A stretch of DNA of 64,000 nt from Nemertoderma westbladi (Eukaryota; Animalia; Xenacoelomorpha). The position numbers and the translations under genes were made by a program. The first letter of the stretch is position 1. Each line of letters opens with the position of its first letter. The notes under the pieces were generated by a model. It saw only the letters and a list, made by a program, of their open reading frames with translations. It made no database searches and was not told the origin of the DNA. The DNA is taken from NCBI GenBank assembly GCA_032718475.1, contig JAUCBJ010001598.1:67731-131730 (forward strand). The letters are read 5' to 3'. Below, piece after piece: positions 1 to 59,743 of this stretch.

Positions 1-3000
1 TTGAGTCTGTACTATTCTACGCTATCATTTGTTTCCCAGGCACCCCGTTGAGTCTGTACTATTCTACGTTAGCATTTGTTTCCCAGGCACCCCGTTGAGT
101 CTGTACTATTCTACGCTATCATTTGTTTCCCAGGCACCCCGTTGAGTCTGTACTATTCTACGCTATCATTTGTTTCCCAGGCACCCCGTTGAGTCTGTAC
201 TATTCTACGTTAGCATTTGTTTCCCAGGCACCCCGTTGAGTCTGTACTATTCTACGCTATCATTTGTTTCCCAGGCACCCCGTTGAGTCTGTACTATTCT
301 ACGCTATCATTTGTTTCCCAGGTACCCCGTTGAGTCTGTACTATTCTACGCTATCATTTGTTTCCCAGACACCCCGTTGAGTCTGTACTATTCTACGCTA
401 TCATTTGTTTCCCAGGCACCCCGTTGAGTCTGTACTATTCTACGCTATCATTTGTTTCCCAGGCACCCCGTTGAGTCTACAATTCTACGCTATCATTTGT
501 TTCCCAGGCACCCCGTTGAGTCTGCCTGTACTATTCTACGCTATCATTTGTTTCCCAGGCACCCTGTTGAGTCTGTACTATTCTACGCTATCATTTGTTT
601 CCCAGGCACCCCGTTGAGTCTGTCTGTACTATTCTACGCTATCATTTGTTTCCCAGGCACCCCGTTGAGTCTGTACTATTCTACGCTATCATTTGTTTCC
701 CAGGCACCCCGTTGAGTCTACAATTCTACGCTATCATTTGTTTCCCAGGCACCCCGTTGAGTCTGTACTATTCTACATTATCATTTGTTTCCCAGGCACC
801 CCGTTGAGTCTACTATTCTACATTATCATTTGTTTCCCAGGCACCCCGTTGAGTCTGTACTATTCTACGCTATCATTTGTTTCCCAGGCACCCCGTTGAG
901 TCTGTACTATTCTACGCTATCCTTTGTTTCCCAGACACCCCGTTGAGTCTGTACTATTCTACGCTATCATTTGTTTCCCATGCACCCCGTTGAGTCTACA
1001 ATTATACGCTATCATTTGTTTCCCAGGCACCCTGTTGAGTCTGTCTGTACTATTCTACGCTATCATTTGTTTCCCAGACACCCCGTTGAGTCTGTACTAT
1101 TCTACGCTATCCTTTGTTTCCCAGACACCCCGTTGAGTCTGTACTATTCTACGCTATCATTTGTTTCCCATGCACCCCGTTGAGTCTACTATTCTACGCT
1201 ATCATTTGTTTCCCAGGCACTCCGTTGAGTCTGTACTATTCTACGCTGTCATTTGTTTCCCAGGCACGCCGTTGAGTCTGTACTATTCTACGCTATCATT
1301 TGTTTCCCAGGCACCCCGTTGAGTCTGTACTATTCTACGCTATCATTTGTTTCCCAGGCACCCTGTTGAGTCTGTCTGTACTATTCTACGCTACCATTTG
1401 TTTCCCAGGCACCCCGTTGAGTCTACAATTCTACGCTATCATTTGTTTCCCAGGCACCCCGTTGAGTCTGTACTATTCTACATTATCATTTGTTTCCCAG
1501 GCACCCCGTTGAGTCTACTATTCTACATTATCATTTGTTTCCCAGGCACTCCGTTGAGTCTGTCTGTACTATTCTACGCTATCATTTGTTTCCCAGGCAC
1601 CCTGTTGAGTCTGTCTGTACTATTCTACGCTACCATTTGTTTCCCAGGCACCCCGTTGAGTCTACAATTCTACGCTATCATTTGTTTCCCAGGCACCCCG
1701 TTGAGTCTGTACTATTCTACATTATCATTTGTTTCCCAGGCACCCCGTTGAGTCTACTATTCTACGCTAGCATTTGTTTCCCAGACACCCCGTTGAGTCT
1801 GTACTATTCTACGCTATCCTTTGTTTCCCAGACACCCCGTTGAGTCTGTACTATTCTACGCTATCATTTGTTTCCCATGCACCCCGTTGAGTCTACTATT
1901 CTACGCTATCATTTGTTTCCCAGGCACTCCGTTGAGTCTGTACTATTCTACGCTGTCATTTGTTTCCCAGGCACGCCGTTGAGTCTGTACTATTCTACGC
2001 TATCATTTGTTTCCCAGGCACCCTGTTGAGTCTGTCTGTACTATTCTACGCTACCATTTGTTTCCCAGGTACCCCGTTGAGTCTGTACTATTCTACGCTA
2101 TCATTTGTTTCCCAGGCACTCCGTTGCGTCTACTATTCTACGCTATCATTTGTTTCCCAGGCACCCTGTTGAGTCTGTACTATTCTACGCTATCATTTGT
2201 TTCCCAGACACCCCGTTGAGTCTGTACTATTCTACGCTATCATTTGTTTCCCATGCACCCCGTTGAGTCTACTATTCTACGCTATCATTTGTTTCCCATG
2301 CACCCCGTTGAGTCTACTATTCTACGCTATCATTTGTTTCCCAGACACCCCGTTGAGTCTGTACTATTATACGCTATCATTTGTTTCCCAGGCACCCCGT
2401 TGAGTCTGTCTGTACTATTCTACGCTATCATTTGTTTCCCAGGCACCCTGTTGAGTCTGTCTGTACTATTCTACGTTATCATTTTTTTCCCAGGCACCCT
2501 GTTGAGTCTGTCTGTACTATTCTACGCTACCATTTGTTTCCCAGGCACCCCGTTGAGTCTGTACTATTCTACGCTATCATTTGTTTCCCAGGCACCCCGT
2601 TGAGTCTACAATTCTACGCTATCATTTGTTTCCCAGGCACCCCGTTGAGTCTGTACTATTCTACATTATCATTTGTTTCCCAGGCACCCCGTTGAGTCTG
2701 TACTATTCTACGCTATCATTTGTTTCCCAGGCACCCTGTTGAGTCTGTACTATTCTACGTTATCATTTTTTTCCCAGGCACCCTGTTGAGTCTGTCTGTA
2801 CTATTCTACGCTACCATTTGTTTCCCAGGCACCCCGTTGAGTCTGTACTATTCTACGCTATCATTTGTTTCCCAGGCACCCCGTTGAGTCTACAATTCTA
2901 CGCTATCATTTGTTTCCCAGGCACCCCGTTGAGTCTGTACTATTCTACATTATCATTTGTTTCCCAGGCACCCCGTTGAGTCTGTACTATTCTACGCTAC

Positions 3001-6000
3001 CATTTGTTTCCCAGGCACCCCGTTGAGTCTGTACTATTCTACGCTATCATTTGTTTCCCAGGCACCCCGTTGAGTCTACAATTCTACGCTATCATTTGTT
3101 TCCCAGGCACCCTGTTGAGTCTGTACTATTCTACGTTATCATTTTTTTCCCAGGCACCCTGTTGAGTCTGTCTGTACTATTCTACGCTACCATTTGTTTC
3201 CCAGGCACCCCGTTGAGTCTGTACTATTCTACGCTATCATTTGTTTCCCAGGCACCCCGTTGAGTCTGTACTATTCTACGCTATCATTTGTTTCCCAGGC
3301 ACCCCGTTGAGTCTGTACTATTCTACGCTATCATTTGTTTCCCAGGCACCCCGTTGAGTCTGTACTATTCTACGCTATCATTTGTTTCCCAGGTACCCCG
3401 TTGAGTCTGTACTATTCTACGTTAGCATTTGTTTCCCAGACACCCCGTTGAGTCTGTACTATTCTACGCTATCATTTGTTTCCCAGGCACCTCGTTAAGT
3501 CTGTACTATTATACGCTATCATTTGTTTCCCAGGCACCCTGTTGAGTCTGTCGGTACTATTCTACGCTATCATTTGTTTCCCAGGCACCCCGTTGAGTCT
3601 GTACTATTCTACGCTATCATTTGTTTCCCAGGCACCCCGTTGAGTCTGTACTATTCTACGCTATCATTTGTTTCCCAGGCACCCCGTTGAGTCTGTACTA
3701 TTCTACGCTATCATTTGTTTCCCAGGCACCCCGTTGAGTCTGTACTATTCTACGCTATCATTTGTTTCCCATGCACCCCGTTGAGTCTACTATTCTACGC
3801 TATCCTTTGTTTCCCAGGCACCCCGTTGAGTCTACTATTCTACGCTATCATTTGTTTCCCATGCACCCCGTTGAGTCTACTATTCTACGCTATCATTTGT
3901 TTCCCAGACACCCCGTTGAGTCTGTACTATTCTACGCTATCATTTGTTTCCCAGGCACCCCGTTGAGTCTGTCTGTACTATTCTACGCTATCATTTGTTT
4001 CCCAGGCACCTCGTTGAGTCTGTCTGTACTATTCTACGCTATATCATTTGTTTCCCAGGCACCCTGTTGAGTCTACTATTCTACGCTAGCATTTGTTTCC
4101 CAGGCACCCCGTTGAGTCTGTACTATTCTACGTTATCATTTTTTTCCCAGGCACCCTGTTGAGTCTGTCTGTACTATTCTACGCTACCATTTGTTTCCCA
4201 GGCACCCCGTTGAGTCTGTACTATTCTACGCTATCATTTGTTTCCCAGGCACCCCGTTGAGTCTGTACTATTCTACGTTAGCATTTGTTTCCCAGACACC
4301 CCGTTGATTCTGTACTATTCTACGCTATCATTTGTTTCCCAGGCACCCTGTTGAGTCTACTATTCTACGCTATCATTTGTTTCCCATGCACCCCGTTGAG
4401 TCTACTATTCTACGCTATCATTTGTTTCCCAGGCACTCCGTTGAGTCTGTACTATTCTACGCTATCATTTGTTTCCCATGCACCCCGTTGAGTCTACTAT
4501 TCTACGCTATCCTTTGTTTCCCAGACACCCCGTTGAGTCTGTACTATTCTACGCTATCATTTGTTTCCCATGCACCCCGTTGAGTCTACTATTCTACGCT
4601 ATCATTTGTTTCCCAGACACCCCGTTAAGTCTGTACTATTATACGCTATCATTTGTTTCCCAGGCACCCTGTGGAGTCTGTCGGTACTATTCTACGCTAT
4701 CATTTGTTTCCCAGGCACCCCGTTGAGTCTACTATTCTACATTATCATTTGTTTCCCAGGCACCCCGTTGAGTCTGTACTATTCTACGCTATCCTTTGTT
4801 TCCCAGACACCCCGTTGAGTCTGTACTATTCTACGCTATCATTTGTTTCCCATGCACCCCGTTGAGTCTACTATTCTACGCTATCATTTGTTTCCCAGGC
4901 ACTCCGTTGAGTCTGTACTATTCTACGCTATCATTTGTTTCCCATGCACCCCGTTGAGTCTACTATTCTACGCTATCCTTTGTTTCCCAGACACCCCGTT
5001 GAGTCTGTACTATTCTACGCTATCATTTGTTTCCCATGCACCCCGTTGAGTCTACTATTCTACGCTATCATTTGTTTCCCAGGCACTCCGTTGAGTCTGT
5101 ACTATTCTACGCTATCATTTGTTTCCCATGCACCCCGTTGAGTCTACTATTCTACGCTATCCTTTGTTTCCCAGACACCCCGTTGAGTCTGTACTATTCT
5201 ACGCTATCATTTGTTTCCCATGCACCCCGTTGAGTCTACTATTCTACGCTATCATTTGTTTCCCAGGCACTCCGTTGAGTCTGTACTATTCTACGCTATC
5301 ATTTGTTTCCCAGGCACCCCGTTGAGTCTGTACTATTCTACGTTAGCATTTGTTTCCCAGGCACCCCGTTGAGTCTGTACTATTCTACGCTATCATTTGT
5401 TTCCCAGACACCCCGTTGAGTCTGTACTATTCTACGCTGTCATTTGTTTCCCAAGCACCCCGTTGAGTCTACAATTCTACGCTATCATTTGTTTCCCAGA
5501 CACCCCGTTGAGTCTACAATTCTACGCTATCATTTGTTTCCCAGGCACCCCGTTGAGTCTGTCTGTACTATTCTACGCTATCATTTGTTTCCCAGGCACC
5601 CCGTTGAGTCTGTACTATTCTACGCTATCACTTGTTTCCCAGGCACCCCGTTGAGTCTGTACTATTCTACGCTATCATTTGTTTCCCAGGCACCCCGTTG
5701 AGTCTGTACTATTCTACGCTATCATTTGTTTCCCAGGCACCCCGTTGAGTCTGTACTATTCTACGCTATCATTTGTTTCCCAGGCACCCCGTTGAGTCTG
5801 TACTATTCTACGTTAGCATTTGTTTCCCAGGCACCCCGTTGAGTCTGTACTATTCTACGCTATCATTTGTTTCCCAGGCACCCCGTTGAGTCTGTACTAT
5901 TCTACGCTATCATTTGTTTCCCAGGCACCCCGTTGAGTCTGTACTATTCTACGTTAGCATTTGTTTCCCAGGCACCCCGTTGAGTCTGTACTATTCTACG

Positions 6001-9000
6001 CTATCATTTGTTTCCCAGGCACCCCGTTGAGTCTGTACTATTCTACGCTATCATTTGTTTCCCAGGCACCCCGTTGAGTCTGTACTATTCTACGTTAGCA
6101 TTTGTTTCCCAGGCACCCCGTTGAGTCTGTACTATTCTACGCTATCATTTGTTTCCCAGGCACCCCGTTGAGTCTGTACTATTCTACGCTATCATTTGTT
6201 TCCCAGGTACCCCGTTGAGTCTGTACTATTCTACGCTATCATTTGTTTCCCAGACACCCCGTTGAGTCTGTACTATTCTACGCTATCATTTGTTTCCCAG
6301 GCACCCCGTTGAGTCTGTACTATTCTACGCTATCATTTGTTTCCCAGGCACCCCGTTGAGTCTACAATTCTACGCTATCATTTGTTTCCCAGGCACCCCG
6401 TTGAGTCTGCCTGTACTATTCTACGCTATCATTTGTTTCCCAGGCACCCTGTTGAGTCTGTACTATTCTACGCTATCATTTGTTTCCCAGGCACCCCGTT
6501 GAGTCTGTCTGTACTATTCTACGCTATCATTTGTTTCCCAGGCACCCCGTTGAGTCTGTACTATTCTACGCTATCATTTGTTTCCCAGGCACCCCGTTGA
6601 GTCTACAATTCTACGCTATCATTTGTTTCCCAGGCACCCCGTTGAGTCTGTACTATTCTACATTATCATTTGTTTCCCAGGCACCCCGTTGAGTCTACTA
6701 TTCTACATTATCATTTGTTTCCCAGGCACCCCGTTGAGTCTGTACTATTCTACGCTATCATTTGTTTCCCAGGCACCCCGTTGAGTCTGTACTATTCTAC
6801 GCTATCCTTTGTTTCCCAGACACCCCGTTGAGTCTGTACTATTCTACGCTATCATTTGTTTCCCATGCACCCCGTTGAGTCTACAATTATACGCTATCAT
6901 TTGTTTCCCAGGCACCCTGTTGAGTCTGTCTGTACTATTCTACGCTATCATTTGTTTCCCAGACACCCCGTTGAGTCTGTACTATTCTACGCTATCCTTT
7001 GTTTCCCAGACACCCCGTTGAGTCTGTACTATTCTACGCTATCATTTGTTTCCCATGCACCCCGTTGAGTCTACTATTCTACGCTATCATTTGTTTCCCA
7101 GGCACTCCGTTGAGTCTGTACTATTCTACGCTGTCATTTGTTTCCCAGGCACGCCGTTGAGTCTGTACTATTCTACGCTATCATTTGTTTCCCAGGCACC
7201 CCGTTGAGTCTGTACTATTCTACGCTATCATTTGTTTCCCAGGCACCCTGTTGAGTCTGTCTGTACTATTCTACGCTACCATTTGTTTCCCAGGCACCCC
7301 GTTGAGTCTACAATTCTACGCTATCATTTGTTTCCCAGGCACCCCGTTGAGTCTGTACTATTCTACATTATCATTTGTTTCCCAGGCACCCCGTTGAGTC
7401 TACTATTCTACATTATCATTTGTTTCCCAGGCACTCCGTTGAGTCTGTCTGTACTATTCTACGCTATCATTTGTTTCCCAGGCACCCTGTTGAGTCTGTC
7501 TGTACTATTCTACGCTACCATTTGTTTCCCAGGCACCCCGTTGAGTCTACAATTCTACGCTATCATTTGTTTCCCAGGCACCCCGTTGAGTCTGTACTAT
7601 TCTACATTATCATTTGTTTCCCAGGCACCCCGTTGAGTCTACTATTCTACGCTAGCATTTGTTTCCCAGACACCCCGTTGAGTCTGTACTATTCTACGCT
7701 ATCCTTTGTTTCCCAGACACCCCGTTGAGTCTGTACTATTCTACGCTATCATTTGTTTCCCATGCACCCCGTTGAGTCTACTATTCTACGCTATCATTTG
7801 TTTCCCAGGCACTCCGTTGAGTCTGTACTATTCTACGCTGTCATTTGTTTCCCAGGCACGCCGTTGAGTCTGTACTATTCTACGCTATCATTTGTTTCCC
7901 AGGCACCCTGTTGAGTCTGTCTGTACTATTCTACGCTACCATTTGTTTCCCAGGTACCCCGTTGAGTCTGTACTATTCTACGCTATCATTTGTTTCCCAG
8001 GCACTCCGTTGCGTCTACTATTCTACGCTATCATTTGTTTCCCAGGCACCCTGTTGAGTCTGTACTATTCTACGCTATCATTTGTTTCCCAGACACCCCG
8101 TTGAGTCTGTACTATTCTACGCTATCATTTGTTTCCCATGCACCCCGTTGAGTCTACTATTCTACGCTATCATTTGTTTCCCATGCACCCCGTTGAGTCT
8201 ACTATTCTACGCTATCATTTGTTTCCCAGACACCCCGTTGAGTCTGTACTATTATACGCTATCATTTGTTTCCCAGGCACCCCGTTGAGTCTGTCTGTAC
8301 TATTCTACGCTATCATTTGTTTCCCAGGCACCCTGTTGAGTCTGTCTGTACTATTCTACGTTATCATTTTTTTCCCAGGCACCCTGTTGAGTCTGTCTGT
8401 ACTATTCTACGCTACCATTTGTTTCCCAGGCACCCCGTTGAGTCTGTACTATTCTACGCTATCATTTGTTTCCCAGGCACCCCGTTGAGTCTACAATTCT
8501 ACGCTATCATTTGTTTCCCAGGCACCCCGTTGAGTCTGTACTATTCTACATTATCATTTGTTTCCCAGGCACCCCGTTGAGTCTGTACTATTCTACGCTA
8601 TCATTTGTTTCCCAGGCACCCTGTTGAGTCTGTACTATTCTACGTTATCATTTTTTTCCCAGGCACCCTGTTGAGTCTGTCTGTACTATTCTACGCTACC
8701 ATTTGTTTCCCAGGCACCCCGTTGAGTCTGTACTATTCTACGCTATCATTTGTTTCCCAGGCACCCCGTTGAGTCTACAATTCTACGCTATCATTTGTTT
8801 CCCAGGCACCCCGTTGAGTCTGTACTATTCTACATTATCATTTGTTTCCCAGGCACCCCGTTGAGTCTGTACTATTCTACGCTACCATTTGTTTCCCAGG
8901 CACCCCGTTGAGTCTGTACTATTCTACGCTATCATTTGTTTCCCAGGCACCCCGTTGAGTCTACAATTCTACGCTATCATTTGTTTCCCAGGCACCCTGT

Positions 9001-12000
9001 TGAGTCTGTACTATTCTACGTTATCATTTTTTTCCCAGGCACCCTGTTGAGTCTGTCTGTACTATTCTACGCTACCATTTGTTTCCCAGGCACCCCGTTG
9101 AGTCTGTACTATTCTACGCTATCATTTGTTTCCCAGGCACCCCGTTGAGTCTGTACTATTCTACGCTATCATTTGTTTCCCAGGCACCCCGTTGAGTCTG
9201 TACTATTCTACGCTATCATTTGTTTCCCAGGCACCCCGTTGAGTCTGTACTATTCTACGCTATCATTTGTTTCCCAGGTACCCCGTTGAGTCTGTACTAT
9301 TCTACGTTAGCATTTGTTTCCCAGACACCCCGTTGAGTCTGTACTATTCTACGCTATCATTTGTTTCCCAGGCACCTCGTTAAGTCTGTACTATTATACG
9401 CTATCATTTGTTTCCCAGGCACCCTGTTGAGTCTGTCGGTACTATTCTACGCTATCATTTGTTTCCCAGGCACCCCGTTGAGTCTGTACTATTCTACGCT
9501 ATCATTTGTTTCCCAGGCACCCCGTTGAGTCTGTACTATTCTACGCTATCATTTGTTTCCCAGGCACCCCGTTGAGTCTGTACTATTCTACGCTATCATT
9601 TGTTTCCCAGGCACCCCGTTGAGTCTGTACTATTCTACGCTATCATTTGTTTCCCATGCACCCCGTTGAGTCTACTATTCTACGCTATCCTTTGTTTCCC
9701 AGGCACCCCGTTGAGTCTACTATTCTACGCTATCATTTGTTTCCCATGCACCCCGTTGAGTCTACTATTCTACGCTATCATTTGTTTCCCAGACACCCCG
9801 TTGAGTCTGTACTATTCTACGCTATCATTTGTTTCCCAGGCACCCCGTTGAGTCTGTCTGTACTATTCTACGCTATCATTTGTTTCCCAGGCACCTCGTT
9901 GAGTCTGTCTGTACTATTCTACGCTATATCATTTGTTTCCCAGGCACCCTGTTGAGTCTACTATTCTACGCTAGCATTTGTTTCCCAGGCACCCCGTTGA
10001 GTCTGTACTATTCTACGTTATCATTTTTTTCCCAGGCACCCTGTTGAGTCTGTCTGTACTATTCTACGCTACCATTTGTTTCCCAGGCACCCCGTTGAGT
10101 CTGTACTATTCTACGCTATCATTTGTTTCCCAGGCACCCCGTTGAGTCTGTACTATTCTACGTTAGCATTTGTTTCCCAGACACCCCGTTGATTCTGTAC
10201 TATTCTACGCTATCATTTGTTTCCCAGGCACCCTGTTGAGTCTACTATTCTACGCTATCATTTGTTTCCCAGGCACGCCGTTGAGTCTACTATTCTACGC
10301 TATCATTTGTTTCCCAGGCACTCCGTTGAGTCTGTACTATTCTACGCTATCATTTGTTTCCCAGGCACCCCGTTGAGTCTACTATTCTACGCTATCATTT
10401 GTTTCCCAGGCACTCCGTTGAGTCTGTACTATTCTACGCTATCATTTGTTTCCCATGCACCCCGTTGAGTCTACTATTCTACGCTATCCTTTGTTTCCCA
10501 GACACCCCGTTGAGTCTGTACTATTCTACGCTATCATTTGTTTCCCATGCACCCCGTTGAGTCTACTATTCTACGCTATCATTTGTTTCCCAGACACCCC
10601 GTTAAGTCTGTACTATTATACGCTATCATTTGTTTCCCAGGCACCCTGTGGAGTCTGTCGGTACTATTCTACGCTATCATTTGTTTCCCAGGCACCCCGT
10701 TGAGTCTACTATTCTACATTATCATTTGTTTCCCAGGCACCCCGTTGAGTCTGTACTATTCTACGCTATCCTTTGTTTCCCAGACACCCCGTTGAGTCTG
10801 TACTATTCTACGCTATCATTTGTTTCCCATGCACCCCGTTGAGTCTACTATTCTACGCTATCATTTGTTTCCCAGGCACTCCGTTGAGTCTGTACTATTC
10901 TACGCTATCATTTGTTTCCCATGCACCCCGTTGAGTCTACTATTCTACGCTATCCTTTGTTTCCCAGACACCCCGTTGAGTCTGTACTATTCTACGCTAT
11001 CATTTGTTTCCCATGCACCCCGTTGAGTCTACTATTCTACGCTATCATTTGTTTCCCAGGCACTCCGTTGAGTCTGTACTATTCTACGCTATCATTTGTT
11101 TCCCATGCACCCCGTTGAGTCTACTATTCTACGCTATCCTTTGTTTCCCAGACACCCCGTTGAGTCTGTACTATTCTACGCTATCATTTGTTTCCCATGC
11201 ACCCCGTTGAGTCTACTATTCTACGCTATCATTTGTTTCCCAGGCACTCCGTTGAGTCTGTACTATTCTACGCTGTCATTTGTTTCCCAAGCACCCCGTT
11301 GAGTCTACTATTCTACATTATCATTTGTTTCCCAGGCACGCCGTTGAGTCTGTACTATTCTACGCTATCATTTGTTTCCCAGGCACCCCGTTGAGTCTAC
11401 TATTCTACGTTATCATTTGTTTCCCAGGCACCCCGTTGAGTCTGTCTGTACTATTCTACGCTATCATTTGTTTCCCAGGCACTCCGTTGAGTCTGTACTA
11501 TTCTACGCTGTCATTTGTTTCCCAGGCACCCTGTTGAGTCTGTCTGTACTATTCTACGCTATCATTTGTTTCCCAGGTACCCCGTTGAGTCTGTACTATT
11601 CTACGCTATCATTTGTTTCCCAGGCACTCCGTTGCGTCTACTATTCTACGCTATCATTTGTTTCCCAGGCACTCCGTTGAGTCGGTACTATTCTACGCTA
11701 TCATTTGTTTCCCAGGCACCCCGTTGAGTCTGTACTATTCTACGCTATCATTTGTTTCCCAGGCACCCCGTTGAGTCTGTACTATTCTACGCTATCATTT
11801 GTTTCCCAGGCACCCTGTTGAGTCTGTCTGTACTATTCTACGCTACCATTTGTTTCCCAGGTACCCCGTTGAGTCTGTACTATTCTACGCTATCATTTGT
11901 TTCCCAGGCACCCCGTTGAGTCTACTATTCTACTCTACCATTTGTTTCCCAGGCACCCCGTTGCGTCTACTATTCTACGCTATCATTTGTTTCCCAGGCA

Positions 12001-42278: not shown

Positions 42279-42443
42279 GAACGCCGTTCTAACAATGTCG
42301 GACAGCTACCGGCTCTTTACGAGGGTATCAGCATGGACGATATTATCGAAGGTACCGTGGGCGCGCTGCATCAGTTAGCGAGAGATAAACACAACCGAGC
42401 CTACATCCGCCAGTTACAGTACACCATACCTATATTCGTAGAG
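42279..42443 (+). CDS. CTNNB1: Beta-catenin exon F: [55 protein letters not shown]
   Basis: Matches [40 protein letters not shown]. tattAG acceptor, GAG|GTtagt donor, phase 0 to 0. Confidence 0.92.
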
Positions 42444-44321: not shown

Positions 44322-44704
44322 AATAGGCGTACGGGATTGGGGGGGGGGGGGGGGGGGGGGGTGGCAGGGCAGGGCAGGGCAGGGAGGGCAATAATTGCCC
44401 ATCCAACAAATGTCTATGGGGCGAATTTACAGGCATAAATAATGAAGGGCGACATTTTTGAGTATTACAACTTTTTTTCAAAAATTACTGCAGAGGTTTA
44501 TGTCCGCTGTTATACCAACCGGTAATGTAAAAGCGTTAGTTTTAACAATGTATTACTGTATTATATTGTTTAAAAAGTTTGTTTTAAATGTGCAAAATCT
44601 CAACATTGTTTAAAAAAATTTCACTCGTTGCGCTCGCTTGTTCCCACCCCCCCCCCCCCCCCCCCCTCCCCCCTCCCAGTGGAAATACTTCCCGTACGCT
44701 TATG
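44322..44704. mobile_element. MITE with 8-bp TSD (hAT-like)
   Basis: TIRs aATAGGCGTACGGGA / TCCCGTACGCtTATG with subterminal poly-G and poly-C tracts. TSD AATAGTCC at 44314-44321 and 44705-44712. Confidence 0.8.
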
Positions 44705-47185
44705 AATAGTCCCGTAGCCTTGTCCAGATAATTAAATTAATAATTACAGGGTTGTATTGTGACGGGACTGACGGAGTTGACAGTATCAGCTCCCGACCGG
44801 TGTAGGTTGTACGCGTTATTGCGTCGCTGGCTAATTGCTGGATATGTTAGGCCGAAGGCCGTTGAAGAACAGAGAGTTAAATTCTCAGTGTTGATAATCA
44901 CATCAAGTCTGAATATGATAATATGCAATGCACAGTAACAGTATTAATTGTAACGACAATAACAACGACGATCAAAAACTATGCCGGTCTCACAACCGTA
45001 AGGGAATCAACTAACCGGTAATCAGTAGTTGCAATGATTATATAATTGACACATATTAGTTTTAGCCCTACACTACTGTGCGGCCTCTGGTATCCAATGG
45101 ATGCGCTCGTATCCTCCCCAATCTGCTTCCCTGCCAACTATTGGCCTAACTATTAGTTGTCACTTCGCCACTCCCTGTTGGTGTTTCCCCTTGGTGCTAG
45201 CTTGCCTCACTTAGCTGGTTTCCCCCTCTGAGGTGGTTTGACCTCTCACCTCTCTCTGTGGCTACGGCGTGTGTCGCCCCCCCCCCCCCCCCCCCCGTTG
45301 GTTATGAGGTGAGATTATTATTGGTAATCACACATCGCCAACTATATTGGTAAAATGCCACTAGTCCCATTTTAGGTGGGTAATGTACGGAATTGAATCC
45401 GCTTACATGTATATGTATAGGCATGATTTACTTACTTTGTGATCGTGGATTAGGCCTACGGATATCACAGTGCATCTCGTTCTAGAGGTTAGGGACATAA
45501 TATAAAAGGAGCCTGTTTGCACTATTAATTGTCCTGCGGTTGAAGGCCTAATATCGAAATTATGTAATTTAGTTTGATTGTTAATCAATTTTATATAAAT
45601 GTAAACGTAATTCTGTAATGTATATATTTTGAATGTTTGGATATTGAAAGATCTATCTATACTGAAAGCAGATTTCATTATGTCGTATCATTTATGTAGA
45701 GCTCTGTAGAGTTCCGTAAGTATATATAGTGTGTGTTTAATAATCAAACTTGGGCAACTTAATGCCCCTGTTGAAGGATAACCTTCCACTACTGCACCAT
45801 TTAAATATAACCCACTGACATACAGCACAATATAAACAAAAGTACACTACACATACAGTACATAATTCAATATTACAGTAGTTAGTTAGTTAAACTGCAT
45901 AAACCAAATAGAATATTAGATATCTGCTTCTTACAATGCAACGGCACGTAGTTTAAACGCGTGAAAAATATACCTGGCAATATCCAAAATTACATTTGGC
46001 GTTTTTGTACCCATTGGCTCAGTATATTTAAAAATACTCGGGTAGACCGTATATCTTCTACCTATAAATACCTGCATCGCAGGTAATAACCTGCATAATG
46101 GCTACAAACTAAAATAGTTAGCTATAATTGTTGGATTTAGGCTCATCAATAATAGTGTTAGTGAATGAACAGTTAGGTACGTAACGTAGGGCTTAAAGAT
46201 GAAATACTCTGTACCTTAAATGAAGCGATGAATTTTTAACTTTTATATGTAGTACCTTACCGTGTTAACACCGTTCACATTATCTGAGGATCATAATAAA
46301 TCTTAATTAATGATAATGATGAATTATAATAATATAAACTTCATGATGCTCGTGTCATTCATCTTTTGTCTTTTATGGGCCATGTGACATTCCTAGATAA
46401 CATATTTTGGGAAATAAGCAAGTTTCCAAGGTTACAATGTAGTCTTGGAAGTTGTACAAGACTACAAAATAACTAACAAACGATAGTACATGTATTTAAT
46501 ATTTTGAAGTAGGGAAGAATATTAATTGAATTAACTGAATCATTTCAATGTTTTTGTTCAAACATTTAAACAATTTCACAAGGGGGGGGGGGGGGGGGGG
46601 GGGTATCAGGAAGCTTAAAAAAACAAAACAACCTGTAAATTACTTAATGAGTTATTATGTTAATTATATACTATGATATTTACATTATTCATATTCATAC
46701 ATCAGAAAAACTTATTATTTTTATTCGAATTTCAACAACATAAGCTCCGGATTGGCTCCGGGTTAATTTGCCCGGAGCCGGAGCCGGAGCTGGAGCATCC
46801 CTAGTCCGCATTAACGGTAATGTTTGAAATGCGCTCCGGTGCTCATTTAGTGCTTAACGTGTTAAAGGACTTGTTCAACATTATAACACGACAATAATTA
46901 ACACGTGCTTTCAAATCATTTATCCGATTAAATTTTCTGTCCATTTTTGTTTTAGCCTGTTTAAAGTTTTCCGTATTATTATAAATCTACTTTAAACAAG
47001 TCAGAGGACTCCATTTCTGGAGTGTTTCAAAAATTTTAATTAACAAATTTTAATAAGTTATTGTGACTGCAAGGTTATTGTGCAGCACTTTGGTTGTGAC
47101 TTGTGAACCATGTGGCTCGTGTTCTAGAAGGTTACCATGTAGGGCATTCCATATTACTAATTATTTGTTTATTTAATCTCCATAG

Positions 47186-47434
47186 CAACCTACGCCGCTG
47201 CAATCCTATTCCGTATGTCGGAAGATAAGCCGAACGACTACCGTAAGCGACTGAGCGTAGAGCTATCGAGCAGTTTAACCCGGGGCGACGAGTGGGGTGG
47301 AGACGCGGGTATGGATCAAGGGGGCTTCCCGCCTGGCCCCCCCGAGGAAGGTATGTGGAGTGGGGCGACGGCTGCCTCTCCAGCCGATACTAAACACCAC
47401 CACCTACACGGTACACCGCACACACCTGCTTCAG
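47186..47434 (+). CDS. CTNNB1: Beta-catenin exon H: [37 protein letters not shown]...HTPAS(G)
   Basis: Matches [31 protein letters not shown]. catAG acceptor. The 3' end is uncertain: CAG|GTgagc after 47434 or AAG|GTatgt after 47350, both phase 1. Confidence 0.88.
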
Positions 47435-48265
47435 GTGAGCTAATAGTTTCTTTGCACCTTTCGTTTCTTCACTAAACTAATTGTGTACTGTTTGCATTAA
47501 TTTGTTGTTTTTGTATTTCGTATAATATTGTATAATCTGTATCTCTATTGAATTATAATTGTTGTCGCTATTGTCTGTTTTGTAATTCGATTACGCGATT
47601 CAATTGAATATTCGATTGGGAATCTCAATGTAGCTAAACAGAACCAAAAGTTATCCTTCGATTCCTATAAATCTTCAATTACTTTAAGAAATAATTTTGA
47701 AATTTAGATCAAAAGTGCAATTTGAATTAAAAATAATAATATTAAAACACACAGCCTAGCAAAAGTTTCACTATGGAGGTCAGTTTTGATGTTTTCGAAA
47801 GACGAAAGATGAATTGTAGTCTGTCTATCTGTAAGGAAACATTTTTTTTATGTAAAATTGATTTTTTCTGCAAACATGCTCATAATAAAATCATCATTAT
47901 CACTAAATATGTTGAGAAGCAATGATTTACATATTCGGTTTTGCCTCTAAATTCTGTACAAAAAGTGACCAAAAAAGTTTTTTGAATTTTTTTACCTTTC
48001 TTTTGAGAGTAACATTTTCCACTGTGAATATAATAATATATTGAAGTTTTAACGACCCGGCCACATTGAATCTCATATCTGGACCACAACAATGACACTT
48101 TCAATATCAATATCGGAAATTCTATATAGTCAGTAAGAGTTCTAATCAAATCACAATAAAACTGAAACTTTAGTGTCACTATAACGTGGCCAGACTTTTT
48201 AGGGTCTTAACCTTCCAATTAATATCATTATCTGATACTTTAGTGTAAATCCAAGTACTCTTTTA

Positions 48266-51200
48266 ATCTCATTATATTATCTTTATAGGCCATTCTAGCA
48301 TTAACTCGTCTCATTATCCGATCCAGGCCACTATCATTAACCCATTGTATCTCATTATCCGATCCAGGCCACTACCATTAACCCATTGTATCTCATTATC
48401 GGATCCAGGCCACTACCATTAGCCCATTGTATCTCATTATCCGATCCAGGCCACTATCATTAACCCATTGTATCTCATTATCCGATCCAGGCCACTATCA
48501 TTAACCCATTGTATCTCATTATCCGATCCAGGCCACTACCATTAGCCCATTGTATCTCATTATCCGATCCAGGCCACTATCATTAGCCCATTGTATCTCA
48601 TTATCCGATCCAGGCCACTATCATTAACCCATTGTATCTCATTATCCGATCCAGGCCACTATCATTAACCCATTGTATCTCATTATCCGATCCAGGCCAC
48701 TATCATTAACCCATTGTATCTCATTATCCGATCCAGGCCACTATCATTAACCCATTGTATCTCATTATCCGATCCAGGCCACTACCATTAGCCCATTGTA
48801 TCTCATTATCCGATCCAGGCCACTATCATTAACCCATTGTATCTCATTATCCGATCCAGGCCACTACCATTAGCCCATTGTATCTCATTATCCGATCCAG
48901 GCCACTACCATTAACCCATAGTATCTCATTATCCGATCCAGGCCACTACCATTAGCCCATTGTATCTCATTATCCGATCCAGGCCACTATCATTAACCCA
49001 TTGTATCTCATTATCCGATCCAGGCCACTACCATTAACCCATTGTATCTCATTATCCGATCCAGGCCACTATCATTAACCCATTGTATCTCATTATCCGA
49101 TCCAGGCCACTACCATTAACCCATTGTATCTCATTATCCGATCCAGGCCACTACCATTAACCCATTGTATCTCATTATCCGATCCAGGCCACTATCATTA
49201 ACCCATTGTATCTCATTATCCGATCCAGGCCACTACCATTAACCCATTGTATCTCATTATCCGATCCAGGCCACTATCATTAACCCATTGTATCTCATTA
49301 TCCGATCCAGGCCACTACCATTAACCCATTGTATCTCATTATCCGATCCAGGCCACTACCATTAACCCATTGTATCTCATTATCCGATCCAGGCCACTAT
49401 CATTAACCCATTGTATCTCATTATCCGATCCAGGCCACTACCATTAACCCATTGTATCTCATTATCCGATCCAGGCCACTATCATTAACCCATTGTATCT
49501 CATTATCCGATCCAGGCCACTACCATTAACCCATTGTATCTCATTATCCGATCCAGGCCACTATCATTAACCCATTGTATCTCATTATCCGATCCGTGCC
49601 ACTACCATTAACCCATTGTATCTCATTATCCGATCCAGGCCACTACCATTAACCCATTGTATCTCATTATCCGATCCAGGCCACTACCATTAACCCATTG
49701 TATCTCATTATCCGATCCAGGCCACTACCATTAACCCATTGTATCTCATTATCCGATCCAGGCCACTATCATTAACCCATTGTATCTCATTATCCGATCC
49801 GTGCCACTATCATTAACCCATTGTATCTCATTATCCGATCCAGTCCACGACCATTTACCCGTTGTATCTCATTATCCGATCCAGGCCACTATCATTAACC
49901 CATTGTATCTCATTATCTGATCCAGGCCACTACCATTAACCCATTGTATCTCATTATCCGATCCAGGCCACTATCATTAACCCATTGTATCTCATTATCC
50001 GATCCAGGCCACTATCATTAACCCATTGTATCTCATTATCCGATCCAGGCCACTATCATTAACCCATTGTATCTCATTATCTGATCCAGGCCACTACCAT
50101 TAACCCATTGTATCTCATTATCCGATCCAGGCCACTACCATTAACCCATTGTATCTCATTATCCGATCCAGGCCACTATCATTAACCCATTGTATCTCAT
50201 TATCCGATCCAGGCCACTATCATTAACCCATTGTATCTCATTATCCGATCCAGTCCACTACCATTTACCCGTTGTATCTCATTATCCGATCCAGTCCACT
50301 ACCATTTACCCATTGTATCTCATTATCCGATCCAGTCCACTACCATTTACCCATTGTATCTCATTATCCGATCCAGGCCACTACCATTAACCCATTGTAT
50401 CTCATTATCCGATCCAGGCCACTATCATTAACCCATTGTATCTCATTATCCGATCCGTGCCACTATCATTAACCCATTGTATCTCATTATCCGATCCAGT
50501 CCACTACCATTTACCCGTTGTATCTCATTATCCGATCCAGGCCACTATCATTAACCCATTGTATCTCATTATCTGATCCAGGCCACTACCATTAACCCAT
50601 TGTATCTCATTATCCGATCCAGGCCACTATCATTAACCCATTGTATCTCATTATCCGATCCAGGCCACTATCATTAACCCATTGTATCTCATTATCCGAT
50701 CCAGGCCACTATCATTAACCCATTGTATCTCATTATCTGATCCAGGCCACTACCATTAACCCATTGTATCTCATTATCCGATCCAGGCCACTACCATTAA
50801 CCCATTGTATCTCATTATCCGATCCAGGCCACTATCATTAACCCATTGTATCTCATTATCCGATCCAGGCCACTATCATTAACCCATTGTATCTCATTAT
50901 CCGATCCAGTCCACTACCATTTACCCGTTGTATCTCATTATCCGATCCAGTCCACTACCATTTACCCATTGTATCTCATTATCCGATCCAGTCCACTACC
51001 ATTTACCCATTGTATCTCATTATCCGATCCAGTCCACTACCATTTACCCGTTGTATCTCATTATCCGATCCAGTCCACTACCATTTACCCATTGTATCTC
51101 ATTATCCGATCCAGTCCACTACCATTTGCCCATTGTATCTCATTATCCGATCCAGTCCACTACCATTTACCCATTGTATCTCATTATCCGATCCAGTCCA

Positions 51201-54200
51201 CTACCATTTACCCATTGTATCTCATTATCCGATCCAGTCCACTACCATTTGCCCATTGTATCTCATTATCCGATCCAGTCAACTACCATTAACCCATTGT
51301 ATCTCATTATCCGATCCAGGCCACTGCCATTAACCCATTGTATCTCATTATCCGATCCGGGCCACTATCATTAACCCATTGTATCTCATTATCCGATCCA
51401 GGCCACTATCATTAACCCATTGTATCTCATTATCCGATCCAGTCCACTACCATTAACCCACTGTATATCATTATCTGATCCAGGCCACTACCATTAACCC
51501 ATTGTATCTCATTATCCGATCCAGGACACTACCATTTGCCCATTGTATCTCATTATCCGATCCATGTCACTACCATTAACCCACTGTATCTCATTATCCG
51601 ATCCAGGACACTACCATTTGCCCATTGTATCTCATTATCCGATCCAGGCCACTACCATTAACCCATTGTATCTCATTATCCGATCCAGGACACTACCATT
51701 TGCCCATTGTATCTCATTATCCGATCCATGTCACTACCATTAACCCACTGTATCTCATTATCCGATCCAGGACACTACCATTAACCCATTGTATCTCATT
51801 ATCCGATCCAGACCACTACTATTAACCCATTGTATCTCATTATCCGATCCAGACCACTACCATTAACCCATTGTATCTCATTATCCGATCCAGACCACTA
51901 CTATTAACCCATTGTATCTCATTATCCGATCCAGACCACTACTATTAACCCATTGTATCTCATTATCCGATCCAGACCACTACCATTAACCCATTGTATC
52001 TCATTATCCGATCCAGACCACTACTATTAACCCATTGTATCTCATTATCCGATCCAGTCCACTACCATTTACCCGTTGTATCTCATTATCCGATCCAGGC
52101 CACTATCATTAACCCATTGTATCTCATTATCTGATCCAGGCCACTACCATTAACCCATTGTATCTCATTATCCGATCCAGGCCACTATCATTAACCCATT
52201 GTATCTCATTATCCGATCCAGTCCACTACCATTTGCCCATTGTATCTCATTATCCGATCCAGTCCACTACCATTTGCCCATTGTATCTCATTATCCGATC
52301 CAGTCCACTACCATTTACCCATTGTATCTCATTATCCGATCCAGTCCACTCCCATTTACCCATTGTATCTCATTATCCGATCCAGTCCACTACCATTTAC
52401 CCATTGTATCTCATTATCCGATCCAGTCCACTACCATTTGCCCATTGTATCTCATTATCCGATCCAGTCAACTACCATTAACCCATTGTATCTCATTATC
52501 CGATCCAGGCCACTGCCATTAACCCATTGTATCTCATTATCCGATCCAGGCCACTATCATTAACCCATTGTATCTCATTATCCGATCCAGGCCACTATCA
52601 TTAACCCATTGTATCTCATTATCCGATCCAGTCCACTACCATTAACCCACTGTATCTCATTATCTGATCCAGGCCACTACCATTAACCCATTGTATCTCA
52701 TTATCCGATCCAGGACACTACCATTTGCCCATTGTATCTCATTATCCGATCCATGTCACTACCATTAACCCACTGTATCTCATTATCCGATCCAGGACAC
52801 TACCATTAACCCATTGTATCTCATTATCCGATCCAGACCACTACTATTAACCCATTGTATCTCATTATCCGATCCAGACCACTACCATTAACCCATTGTA
52901 TCTCATTATCCGATCCAGACCACTACTATTAACCCATTGTATCTCATTATCCGATCCAGTCCACTACCATTTACCCGTTGTATCTCATTATCCGATCCAG
53001 GCCACTATCATTAACCCATTGTATCTCATTATCTGATCCAGGCCACTACCATTAACCCATTGTATCTCATTATCCGATCCAGGCCACTATCATTAACCCA
53101 TTGTATCTCATTATCCGATCCAGGCCACTATCATTAACCCATTGTATCTCATTATCAGATCCAGGCCACTATCATTAACCCATTGTATCTCATTATCTGA
53201 TCCAGGCCACTACCATTAACCCATTGTATCTCATTATCCGATCCAGGCCACTACCATTAACCCATTGTATCTCATTATCCGATCCAGGCCACTATCATTA
53301 ACCCATTGTATCTCATTATCCGATCCAGGCCACTATCATTAACCCATTGTATCTCATTATCCGATCCAGTCCACTACCATTTACCCGTTGTATCTCATTA
53401 TCCGATCCAGTCCACTACCATTTACCCATTGTATCTCATTATCCGATCCAGTCCACTACCATTTACCCATTGTATCTCATTATCCGATCCAGTCCACTAC
53501 CATTTACCCGTTGTATCTCATTATCCGATCCAGTCCACTACCATTTGCCCATTGTATCTCATTATCCGATCCAGTCCACTACCATTTACCCATTGTATCT
53601 CATTATCCGATCCAGTCCACTACCATTTACCCATTGTATCTCATTATCCGATCCAGTCCACTACCATTTGCCCATTGTATCTCATTATCCGATCCAGTCA
53701 ACTACCATTAACCCATTGTATCTCATTATCCGATCCAGGCCACTGCCATTAACCCATTGTATCTCATTATCCGATCCAGGCCACTATCATTAACCCATTG
53801 TATCTCATTATCCGATCCAGGCCACTATCATTAACCCATTGTATCTCATTATCCGATCCAGTCCACTACCATTAACCCACTGTATCTCATTATCTGATCC
53901 AGGCCACTACCATTAACCCATTGTATCTCATTATCCGATCCAGGACACTACCATTTGCCCATTGTATCTCATTATCCGATCCATGTCACTACCATTAACC
54001 CACTGTATCTCATTATCCGATCCAGGACACTACCATTAACCCATTGTATCTCATTATCCGATCCAGACCACTACTATTAACCCATTGTATCTCATTATCC
54101 GATCCAGACCACTACCATTAACCCATTGTATCTCATTATCCGATCCAGACCACTACTATTAACCCATTGTATCTCATTATCCGATCCATGTCACTATCAT

Positions 54201-57200
54201 TAACCCACTGTATCTCATTATCCGATCCAGGCCACTACCATTAACCCACTGTATCTCATTATCCGATCCAGGCCACTACCATTAACCCACTGTATCTCAT
54301 TATCCGATCCAGGCCACTATCATTAACCCATTGTATCTCATTATCAGATCCAGGCCACTACCATTAACACATTGTATCTCATTATCCGATCCAGACCACT
54401 ACTATTAACCCATTGTATCTCATTATCCGATCCAGGCCACTACCATTAACCCATTGCATCTCATTATCCGATCCAGGCCACTATCATTAACCCATTGTAT
54501 CTCATTATCCGATCCAGGCCACTACCATTAACCCATTGTATCTCATTATCCGATCCAGGCCACTACTATTAACCCATTGTATCTCATTATCCGATCCAGG
54601 CCACTACCATTAACCCATTGTATCTCATTATCCGATCCAGGACACTACTATTAACCCATTGTATCTCATTATCCGATCCAGGCCACTAGCATTAACCCAT
54701 TGTATCTCATTATCCGATCCAGGCCACTATCATTAACCCATTGTATCTCATTATCCGATCCAGGCCACTAGCATTAACCCATTGTATCTCATTATCCGAT
54801 CCAGGCCACTATGATGAACCCATTGTATCTCATTATCCGATCCAGGCCACTAGCATTAACCCATTGTATTTCATTATCCGATCCAGGCCACTATCATTAA
54901 CCCATTGTATCTCATTATCCGATCCAGGCCACTAGCATTAACCCATTGTATCTCATTATCCGATCCAGACCACTGCCATTAACCCATTGTATCTCATTAT
55001 CCGATCCAGGCCACTATGATGAACCCATTGTATCTCATTATCCGATCCAGGCCACTACCATTAACCCATTGTATCTCATTATCCGATCCGTGCCACTATC
55101 ATTAACCCATTGTATCTCATTATCCGATCCAGGCCACTACCATTAACCCATTGTATCTCATTATCCGATCCAGGCCACTACCATTAACCCATTGTATCTC
55201 ATTATCCGATCCAGGCCACTATCATTAACCCATTGTATCTCATTATCCGATCCAGACCACTGCCATTAACCCATTGTATCTCATTATCCGATCCAGGCCA
55301 CTATCATGAACCCATTGTATCTCATTATCCGATCCAGACCACTACCATTAACCCATTGTATCTCATTATCCAATCCAGGCCACTATCATTAACCCAGTGT
55401 ATCTCATTATCCGATCCAGGCCACTATCATGAACCCATTGTATCTCATTATCCGATCCAAGCCACTACCATTAACCCATTGTATCTCATTATCCGATCCA
55501 AGCCACTACCATTAACCCATTGTATCTCATTATCCGATCCAGGCCACTACTATTAACCCATTGTATCTCATTATCCGATCCAGACCACTACTATTAATTA
55601 ACCCATTGTATCTCATTATCCGATCCAAGCCACTACCATTAACCCATTGTATCTCATTATCCGATCCAGGCCACTACTATTAACCCATTGTATCTCATTA
55701 TCCGATCCAGACCACTACTATTAATTAACCCATTGTATCTCATTATCCGATCCAGGCCACTACCATTAACCCATTGCATCTCATTATCCGACCCACACCA
55801 CTACCATTTGCCCATTGTATCTCATTATCTGATCCAGACCACTATCATTAACCCATTGTATCTCATTATCCGATCCAGGCCACTACCATTAACCCATTGT
55901 ATCTCATTATCCGATCCAGACCACTACCATTAACCCATTGTATCTCATTATCCGATCCAGGCCACTATTATTAACCCATTGTATCTCATTATCCGATCCA
56001 GACCACTACCATTTAACCCACTGTATCTCATTATCTGATCCAGACCACTATCATTAACCAATTGTATCTCATTATCCGATCCAGGCCACTACCATTAACC
56101 CATTGTATCTCATTATCCGATCCAGACCACTACCATTAACCCATTGTATCTCATTATCCGATCCAGGCCACTATTATTAACCCATTGTATCTCATTATCT
56201 GATCCAGGCCACTATCATTAACCCACTGTATCTCATTATCTGATCCAGGCCACTACCATTAACCCATTGTATCTCATTATCCGATCCAGGCCACTACCAT
56301 TTACCCGTTGTATCTCATTATCTGATCCAGGCCACTACCATTAACCCATTGTATCTCATTATCTGATCCAGGCCACTACCATTAACCCATTGTATCTCAT
56401 TATCCGATCCAGACCACTACCATTAACCCATTGTATCTCATTATCCGATCCAGGCCACTATTATTAACCCATTGTATCTCATTATCTGATCCACGCCACT
56501 ATCATTAACCCACTGTATCTCATTATCTGATCCAGGCCACTACCATTAACCCATTGTATCTCATTATCCGATCCAAGCCACTACCATTAACCCATTGTAT
56601 CTCATTATCTGATCCAGGCCACTATCCTTAACACACTGTATCTCATTATCTGATCCAGGCCACTACCATTAACCCATTGTATCTCATTATCCGATCCAGG
56701 CCACTACCATTTACCCGTTGTATCTCATTATCTGATCCAAGCCACTACCATTAACCCATTGTATCTCATTATCTGATCCAGGCCACTATCATTAACCCAC
56801 TGTATCTCATTATCTGATCCAGGCCACTACCATTAACCCATTGTATCTCATTATCCGATCCAGACCACTACCATTAACCCATTGTATCTCATTATCCGAT
56901 CCAGGCCACTATTATTAACCCATTGTATCTCATTATCTGATCCAGGCCACTATCATTAACCCACTGTATCTCATTATCTGATCCAGGCCACTACCATTAA
57001 CCCATTGTATCTCATTATCCGATCCAGGCCACTACCATTTACCCGTTGTATCTCATTATCTGATCCAGGCCACTACCATTAACCCATTGTATCTCATTAT
57101 CTGATCCAGGCCACTACCATTAACCCATTGTATCTCATTATCCGATCCAGACCACTACCATTAACCCATTGTATCTCATTATCCGATCCAGGCCACTATC

Positions 57201-59743
57201 ATTAACCCATTGTATCTCATTATCTGATCCAGGCCACTACCATTTACCCGTTGTATCTCATTATCTGATCCAGGCCACTACCATTAACCCATTGTATCTC
57301 ATTATCCGATCCAGGCCACTACCATTTACCCGTTGTATCTCATTATCTGATCCAGGCCACTACCATTAACCCATTGTATCTCATTATCCGATCCAGGCCA
57401 CTACCATTAACCCACTGTATCTCATTATCTGATCCAGGCCACTACCATTAACCCATTGTATCTCATTATCCGATCCAGACCACTACCATTAACCCATTGT
57501 ATCTCATTATCCGATCCAGGCCACTATTATTAACCCATTGTATCTCATTATCCGATCCAGACCACTACCATTTAACCCACTGTATCTCATTATCTGATCC
57601 AGACCACTATCATTAACCAATTGTATCTCATTATCCGATCCAGACCACTACCATTAACCCATTGTATCTCATTATCCGATCCAGGCCACTATTATTAACC
57701 CATTGTATCTCATTATCTGATCCAGGCCACTATCATTAACCCACTGTATCTCATTATCTGATCCAGGCCACTACCATTAACCCATTGTATCTCATTATCC
57801 GATCCAGGCCACTACCATTTACCCGTTGTATCTCATTATCTGATCCAGGCCACTACCATTAACCCATTGTATCTCATTATCTGATCCAGGCCACTACCAT
57901 TAACCCATTGTATCTCATTATCCGATCCAGACCACTACCATTAACCCATTGTATCTCATTATCCGATCCAGGCCACTATTATTAACCCATTGTATCTCAT
58001 TATCTGATCCACGCCACTATCATTAACCCACTGTATCTCATTATCTGATCCAGGCCACTACCATTAACCCATTGTATCTCATTATCCGATCCAGGCCACT
58101 ATTATTAACCCATTGTATCTCATTATCTGATCCACGCCACTATCATTAACCCACTGTATCTCATTATCTGATCCAGGCCACTACCATTAACCCATTGTAT
58201 CTCATTATCCGATCCAAGCCACTACCATTAACCCATTGTATCTCATTATCTGATCCAGGCCACTATCCTTAACCCACTGTATCTCATTATCTGATCCAGG
58301 CCACTACCATTAACCCATTGTATCTCATTATCCGATCCAGGCCACTACCATTTACCCGTTGTATCTCATTATCTGATCCAAGCCACTATTATTAACCCAT
58401 TGTATCTCATTATCTGATCCAGGCCACTATCATTAACCCACTGTATCTCATTATCTGATCCAGGCCACTACCATTAACCCATTGTATCTCATTATCCGAT
58501 CCAGGCCACTACCATTTACCCGTTGTATCTCATTATCTGATCCAGGCCACTACCATTAACCCATTGTATCTCATTATCTGATCCAGGCCACTACCATTAA
58601 CCCATTGTATCTCATTATCCGATCCAGACCACTACCATTAACCCATTGTATCTCATTATCCGATCCAGGCCACTATTATTAACCCATTGTATCTCATTAT
58701 CTGATCCACGCCACTATCATTAACCCACTGTATCTCATTATCTGATCCAGGCCACTACCATTAACCCATTGTATCTCATTATCCGATCCAAGCCACTACC
58801 ATTAACCCATTGTATCTCATTATCTGATCCAGGCCACTATCCTTAACCCACTGTATCTCATTATCTGATCCAGGCCACTACCATTAACCCATTGTATCTC
58901 ATTATCCGATCCAGGCCACTACCATTTACCCGTTGTATCTCATTATCTGATCCAAGCCACTACCATTAACCCATTGTATCTCATTATCTGATCCAGGCCA
59001 CTATCATTAACCCACTGTATCTCATTATCTGATCCAGGCCACTACCATTAACCCATTGTATCTCATTATCCGATCCAGACCACTACCATTAACCCATTGT
59101 ATCTCATTATCCGATCCAGGCCACTATTATTAACCCATTGTATCTCATTATCTGATCCAGGCCACTATCATTAACCCACTGTATCTCATTATCTGATCCA
59201 GGCCACTACCATTAACCCATTGTATCTCATTATCCGATCCAGGCCACTACCATTTACCCGTTGTATCTCATTATCTGATCCAGGCCACTACCATTAACCC
59301 ATTGTATCTCATTATCTGATCCAGGCCACTACCATTAACCCATTGTATCTCATTATCCGATCCAGACCACTACCATTAACCCATTGTATCTCATTATCCG
59401 ATCCAGGCCACTATCATTAACCCATTGTATCTCATTATCTGATCCAGGCCACTACCATTTACCCGTTGTATCTCATTATCTGATCCAGGCCACTACCATT
59501 AACCCATTGTATCTCATTATCCGATCCAGGCCACTACCATTTACCCGTTGTATCTCATTATCTGATCCAGGCCACTACCATTAACCCATTGTATCTCATT
59601 ATCCGATCCAGGCCACTACCATTAACCCACTGTATCTCATTATCTGATCCAGGCCACTACCATTAACCCATTGTATCTCATTATCCGATCCAGACCACAA
59701 CCATTTAACCCACTGTATCTCATTATCTGATCCAGGCCACTAC
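48266..59743 (+). repeat. Intronic satellite, 41-bp unit TTAACCCATTGTATCTCATTATCCGATCCAG|GCCACTAYCA, derived from the acceptor junction of the terminal exon
   Basis: Continuous tandem array; roughly 280 copies estimated from length/unit. The last unit runs into GCCACTACGACCAC of the terminal exon. Confidence 0.96.

Follow-up and report, generated by a model that had tools for sequence, protein, structure and literature searches.

Tandem repeats whose unit spans the exon-intron boundary of their own host gene are known from amphioxus, where they are called mirages. In the available parts of two reports they are described in Adh3, troponin C, the globins BflGb6 and BflGb9, and PGBD5, at 5' and 3' edges, with units of 10-160 bp, many copies of which keep the AG or GT; splicing is normal, length varies between haplotypes, and the mechanism of origin is termed unclear (PMC3087553, PMC3902484). 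For the Adh3 mirage, somatic instability is also reported in the portion of the literature at hand. Here we describe five tandem arrays at exon boundaries of a divergent beta-catenin gene, whose 3' part lies on the forward strand of a 64-kb window (64,000 nucleotides of Nemertoderma westbladi contig JAUCBJ010001598.1). Three of the arrays show the features that define mirages.

Related repeats are found in human genes. Minisatellites at exon-intron junctions have been described for F7 intron 7 (37 bp), 6-16, CBS intron 13, LMNB2 and PDGF; in the sections of that report available to us they lie on the donor side, with 5-26 copies and one array per gene, and F7, LMNB2 and PDGF are spliced at the authentic donor; 6-16 and CBS additionally use two pseudo-sites (PMC1557585). 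Genes in human segmental duplications carry variable internal tandem repeats at exon-intron boundaries, according to part of PMC2812944, and intron gain by tandem duplication is described in the available text of that report and of PMC3087553. For Drosophila Y genes, giant satellite-filled introns are described in the excerpt at hand of PMC6508621. The open-access main texts that were searched held no genome-wide test of junction enrichment and no array as large as those found here.

Results

Three of five arrays repeat the splice junction of their host gene

Arrays were detected with Tandem Repeats Finder (TRF) inside the window, which is free of N. The program finds five within the gene, with periods of 47, 42, 27, 83 and 41 bp (arrays A to E, Table 1), and these occupy 5 of the 19 splice sites of the visible gene. 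Of the 59,878 bases that end with the stop codon, they account for 47,454, or 79%. An earlier sequence-only reading had reported five mutually unrelated arrays at exon boundaries of one gene, three of them with a unit spanning the junction, and these points stand.

The units of A, D and E span a junction exactly. In array A the unit consists of 14 intron bases and the first 33 bases of exon 1, and its last copy forms the actual beginning of exon 1. The array D unit comprises the last 63 bases of exon 6 and 20 intron bases, in three near-identical copies followed by a decayed fourth, and that of E joins 33 intron bases to 8 bases of the last exon, in 278 units (279 copies by TRF). The AG is intact in 633/721 units of A and in 253/278 units of E, and all three copies of D keep the donor. 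Array A has 122 unit variants and E has 65; the consensus of A is the same as its junction copy, to which 145 of the 721 units are identical (junction copy included). Summed contig depth over D is just 1.2-8x that of the flanks. The exon-derived bases of the A and D units code for conserved beta-catenin residues, so the direction was from gene to repeat and not the reverse.

The other two arrays are less clear. The array B unit agrees with the start of exon 2 at 14/15 positions; shuffling gave p 0.001 (1000 shuffles) and, when the junction window was widened, p 0.014 (5000 shuffles). Judged from this match, B is probably an old, decayed fourth junction-spanning case, and probably a mirage. Array C takes up most of intron 5 and stops 8 bases before the exon 6 acceptor. 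An exon part was not demonstrable in its unit (exon-only probe, p 0.13); C merely abuts its acceptor and does not span the junction as mirages do. The donors of the introns whose acceptors bear arrays lie in unique sequence. Of 20 pairwise unit comparisons, 19 gave p>0.1 and one gave p 0.02, so the units are mutually unrelated. A kinship of units A and B had been suspected and was rejected (p 0.43). Full-unit matches of the array units elsewhere within the window were not found; this and the low depth over D would suit locus-specific units.

Larger duplications are nested in the two long arrays. Array A contains an exact 4386-bp duplication (1-4386 and 5886-10271, offset 5885), after which 910 bp are duplicated at an offset of 5977, and also an exact 453-bp block; array E contains exact block duplications of 466-850 bp. 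Such exact blocks in A and E fit turnover by unequal exchange, and the 4386-bp block itself could reflect either unequal exchange in the very recent past or a duplication made in assembly.

The sequence-only reading had also pointed to a consistent polarity, in which acceptor arrays extend upstream with the last copy functional and the donor array extends downstream with the first copy functional. The pattern is present; as evidence for a directed process it falls away, since it is forced by geometry. If a tandem duplication lies over an acceptor, then the rest of the exon follows the last copy only, and if it lies over a donor, the rest of the exon precedes the first copy only.

Splicing past the arrays

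Six sequencing runs of one organism, from three studies, were considered; five contain the stretch, and four (X1, X2, X4 and X5) were aligned to two stretches of the window. Two of the runs, X4 and X5, come from different studies and are labelled 'DNA?', and no matching run is recorded as RNA. Their contigs skip GT..AG introns, and on that ground we treated them as RNA. One X4 contig links exons 1, 2alt (a divergent duplicate of exon 2), 3, 4, 5, 6, 7, 8 and the last exon, with GT..AG skips of 1127, 387 and 347 around exons 3-5. At array D the first donor is used in both X4 and X5 (skip 293, GT..AG). Array C is crossed in both, exon 5 being joined to 42279, and at array E the X4 contig goes from exon 8, with a loose end behind 47435, to the last copy at 59736. 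At the acceptor behind B the contigs bypass exon 2 and carry exon 2alt instead. The 3' end of exon 1 is a loose end of contigs in both X4 and X5. Splicing is normal at the four array junctions checked, that is along the path past B and at C, D and E.

The consequences of using a decoy copy can be read from the frame. All eight nearest decoys of A and both decoys of D lead to premature stops. Among the 254 decoy acceptors in array E, the sole in-frame and stop-free one is at 59694, 42 bases upstream of the last exon, with its AG kept; its use would extend the C-terminal tail by 14 residues. The X4 contig takes 59736 and not 59694, and decay of faulty messages is unlikely to be hiding a 59694 product. 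Since decoys and true site have nearly identical upstream sequence, acceptor choice is probably set by downstream exon content. The duplicated-splice-site experiments of Reed and Maniatis in 1986 reportedly agree with choice on that basis. A loss of AG near the exon, as from selection against decoys, was looked for in A and E and not seen: 18/20 of the last A units retain it, as do 84-100% of E units per bin. This is as expected if decoys are ignored.

Arrays in the DNA of another individual

Over 2.4 kb, run X2 departs from the window sequence at 8 letters and 12 gap positions, and therefore represents another individual. Its DNA contigs stop at 42411, 30 bases into D, and restart at 42594 near the end of that array, and a further contig spans unique sequence from 46802 to 48333, entering array E. 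For the bin in which E begins, the summed depth was 2868 against 9.7 in run X1 and 472 against 15.7 in X2. The two runs are unlike in relative contig depth over both D and E, depth being no measure of copy number.

These contigs bear on whether the arrays, or their length, were made by the assembler, an explanation that we hold to be scarcely credible. The exact 4386-bp duplication in A does lie at the window edge. Against an artefact, the unit variants of A and E (122 and 65) occur within a nested block structure, and D and E appear in the short-read contigs of X2. An artefact could alter the length of A, hardly its existence.

Excess of arrays at splice junctions

In a junction-probe test covering the 19 splice sites and their adjoining introns, with 300 shuffles each, the probe recurred in the adjoining intron at five sites (p<=0.007) and at none of the 14 others. 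Other arrays with a period of at least 25 bp are absent from the ~10.7 kb of remaining intron, in which the nearest thing is a decayed 20-bp repeat at 38811-38926. The null model placed seeds at random on permitted positions. Under it, the probability that at least four of five seeds span a junction is 1.5e-4; taking out interspersed repeats and trimming intron 1 to 500 bases raises it to 3.8e-3. For the three clear cases only it is 4e-3, or 0.04 with interspersed repeats removed. Because the window was selected for its junction pattern, these P values describe a local excess, not a genome-wide one. Of the seed bases 51% are exonic, vs 14% of the sequence.

The local excess argues against fully uniform duplication. 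One selected gene cannot tell a bias at birth from the selection of the window. If duplication were uniform, then this locus would be an extreme case among the very many windows scanned, aided by short ancestral introns, and we consider this unlikely. The last of the P values above is just 0.04, and introns 5 and 6 would measure only ~210 and ~120 bases without their arrays, as such an account would have it; the ~10.7 kb of other intron free of minisatellites of 25 bp or more, which include stretches of 2.9 and 4.3 kb, speak against it, as do the junction arrays of several independent amphioxus genes described in the parts of those reports at hand.

A mutational process linked to splicing or to the boundary (polymerase pausing, R-loops or stalled recombination intermediates) might instead make or re-seed junction duplications; in the stalling variant, recombination intermediates would stop at the meeting point of conserved exon and divergent intron. 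Each of the five arrays touches a junction, the intron-only C included, and four of the five are on the acceptor side. The identity of the A consensus with the junction copy is in keeping with such a process, as is the distribution in E of the junction-copy variant, which makes up 0-12% in the six distal bins and 52-67% in the four proximal ones (rho -0.28). The gradient in E, however, is also an outcome of local homogenisation; A shows hardly any such trend (rho -0.08), and in B and C decay is strongest beside the junction. Polar growth from the junction is unsupported as a general rule across arrays A, B, C and E. Since the units contain intron bases, spliced mRNA is not possible as a template. 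Taken with both sets of observations, a boundary-linked origin appears to us rather improbable.

The host gene and its duplicated exon 2

Joined together, the nine GT-AG exons encode 547 residues in a single open frame. The first of them, exon 1, matches a solved beta-catenin structure (PDB match, E 4e-35), and the protein has both armadillo repeats colinear with beta-catenin and a C-terminal DxDL-type ending. Identity to the best protein matches is 59-63% over ~545 residues, and 61% to the protein of Branchiostoma floridae; no close relative appeared in the protein searches, the best match being ~62% overall. In a protein tree of 43 rows (two window versions and 41 chosen from 204 proteins), the beta-catenin of the window is a long branch with no supported sister and no starred grouping. 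The protein is unusually divergent, and there is a short insertion in exon 4. A fast-evolving lineage or a divergent paralogue could each account for the divergence.

Exons 2 and 2alt are alike at 75/145 bases and 23/48 residues. Exon 2 shares 37-40 of its 48 residues with four named homologues and exon 2alt shares 27/48 with the same four. If both are included, the frame is broken. The RNA contigs of X4 and X5, from two studies, run from exon 1 through 2alt to exon 3 and hold the divergent copy only; exon 2 is uncovered in them, which is no evidence that it is silent. Because the splice sites of exon 2 are intact and the single X2 variant within it falls at a third codon position, the two are likely a duplicated armadillo-repeat pair used in a mutually exclusive manner. 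Titles and abstract starts of the literature turned up nothing relevant on mutually exclusive exons in beta-catenin.

Array B directly precedes exon 2, the version unseen in the RNA contigs, and 44/721 units of A carry an AG followed by a GT. Both observations would suit arrays that are selected regulatory parts, acting as decoys or recursive-splicing ratchets, delaying transcription or controlling the choice between exons 2 and 2alt. The units are nonetheless unrelated and the arrays range from 3 to more than 700 copies; the relative depth of E apparently differs about tenfold between two samples (depth again being no copy number); and the genuine sites are used in the RNA contigs. A regulatory role is on this evidence very improbable.

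Exons 3 to 5 (39652-40969) form an array-free stretch, with array C only downstream. The intron between exons 7 and 8 measures 4.3 kb and has interspersed repeats and no minisatellite. GC content is 53% in exons, 34% in non-array intron and 41-49% in the arrays. A second in-frame GT lies 9 bases past the exon 5 donor (40970-40984), of which the RNA contigs take the first. High-copy interspersed repeats, with a summed depth of up to 45,000, occur in introns 7 and 3 (42894-46800; 39940-39989), and runs of 20-35 G or C are found at 44339, 44643, 45277 and 46582, and also at 35259. Downstream of the gene, a 919-bp foldback element (62081-62999) has 15-bp subterminal repeats in both orientations and is flanked by identical 9-bp direct repeats at 62072 and 63000. 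We take this 9-bp target duplication to suggest a Mutator-type non-autonomous transposon.

Table 1. Arrays and exons of the beta-catenin gene, in coordinates of the window.
Feature	Position	Strand	Evidence and remarks
Array A, 47-bp acceptor mirage	1-33827	+	TRF; at least 721 units, open at window start
Exon 1 of window	33795-33996	+	202 nt; PDB match, open frame
Array B, 42-bp repeat	36865-37805 by TRF, decayed to 37946	+	~21-24 units, runs into exon 2 acceptor
Exon 2, conserved version	37947-38091	+	145 nt; homologue identity
Exon 2alt, divergent duplicate	38380-38524	+	145 nt; RNA contigs X4, X5
Exon 3	39652-39791	+	Open frame; RNA contig X4
Exon 4	40179-40376	+	Open frame; RNA contig X4
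Exon 5	40724-40969	+	Open frame; RNA contig X4
Array C, 27-bp repeat	41163-42262 by TRF, decayed to 42271	+	~41 units, intron-only unit
Exon 6	42279-42443	+	165 nt; open frame, RNA contigs
Array D, 83-bp donor mirage	42381-42635 by TRF (3.1 copies), decayed fourth to 42677	+	Exon 6 donor
Exon 7	42737-42893	+	Open frame; RNA contigs
Exon 8	47186-47434	+	Open frame; RNA contigs
Array E, 41-bp acceptor mirage	48309-59743 by TRF; decayed distal copies from ~48222	+	Last exon
Last coding exon, up to stop codon	59736-59878	+	Open frame; RNA contig X4

Discussion

The explanation that we favor, and consider probable, is that the mirage repeats arose from ordinary local duplication, were amplified by unequal exchange, in two cases up to satellite size, and are spliced out through the one copy that is attached to the full exon. 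In this sequence of events, slippage or repair would duplicate 27-83 bp straddling an exon edge. By geometry, only the outer copy would remain joined to the rest of the exon, and the frame would be preserved. The genuine site would then be spliced, as is seen in the contigs for D, E and C and in the path past B, and as may be presumed for A; use of a decoy would mostly yield premature stops. Once intronic, the array would turn over like an ordinary minisatellite, as the block duplications of 0.6-5.9 kb suggest, and old arrays such as B and C would drift from the junction. The last and least certain step would be a preference for duplications to be born in or near GC-rich exon DNA, where wholly exonic ones would be purged and edge-spanning ones would survive. 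In that case splice sites would be a sieve and not a target. The arrays are, on this account, likely a neutral by-product of DNA duplication.

Several points weigh against this account. The aligned stretches did not take in the exon 1 acceptor, at which the largest array ends, and the contigs reveal the major splice path only; minor use of decoys may occur. Independent DNA support is confined to D and E, with A, B and C outside the comparison. Array C is without an exon part, and B has only its 14/15 match. The neutrality of the arrays is assumed. The preference for exonic births, the least certain element, has a single selected gene behind it, and the exonic fraction of the seed bases in part repeats the overlap with junctions.

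The sequence-only reading had posed two alternatives, either a mutational process that targets splice junctions or general duplication with junction copies that are tolerated. The RNA contigs bear out tolerance at the junctions checked; mutation aimed at splice signals is the less probable of the two. A wider proposition is that a boundary-linked process seeds junction duplications genome-wide throughout the lineage, and that mirages become gene-specific satellites making up most of the intron DNA. We think this unlikely, if not to be dismissed. If it were true, then exon definition alone would lead the spliceosome to the last acceptor among hundreds of identical ones, and the gene would be a natural test bed for 3' splice-site choice. 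The decoy at 59694 and the used site at 59736 offer a clean test of acceptor choice. Extended from a few copies to satellite scale, mirages can lengthen introns and mislead gene prediction. With five arrays in one gene, this genome is suited to testing the enrichment of mirages at junctions, their origin being called unclear in the available parts of the amphioxus reports.

The sequence-only reading had known of no named system of this kind. That statement does not hold, since mirages and human junction minisatellites are on record, as far as the available portions of the reports describe them (PMC3087553, PMC3902484, PMC1557585). The anatomy of arrays A, D and E is like that of amphioxus mirages, in that the unit lies across an exon-intron boundary of the host gene. 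Copy numbers are 2-7 for amphioxus mirages in the text at hand, vs at least 721 and 278 for the two largest arrays here, and unlike those mirages the present arrays number five in a single gene, with block duplications on the kilobase scale. The host is not an amphioxus-type beta-catenin, given its 61% identity to Branchiostoma and its long separate branch. Array D resembles the repeats of human F7, LMNB2 and PDGF, with the first unit across the boundary and the authentic donor in use. Four of the five arrays are on the acceptor side, however, and the donor scanning model of PMC1557585, in the form given in its available part, does not apply to them. With the human segmental-duplication genes the locus shares boundary minisatellites that are able to remodel gene structure. 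Intron gain by tandem duplication creates a new intron that orthologues lack and whose splice sites come from the duplicated unit, whereas no new intron is shown in the beta-catenin gene here. As in Drosophila Y genes, the introns are inflated by satellites yet spliced, although there the scale is megabases. The satellites of the Y introns are reportedly simple repeats that do not come from exon edges. The repeats described here are thus of a known and named kind, and what is unusual about them is their size, up to satellite scale, and the number of arrays in a single gene.

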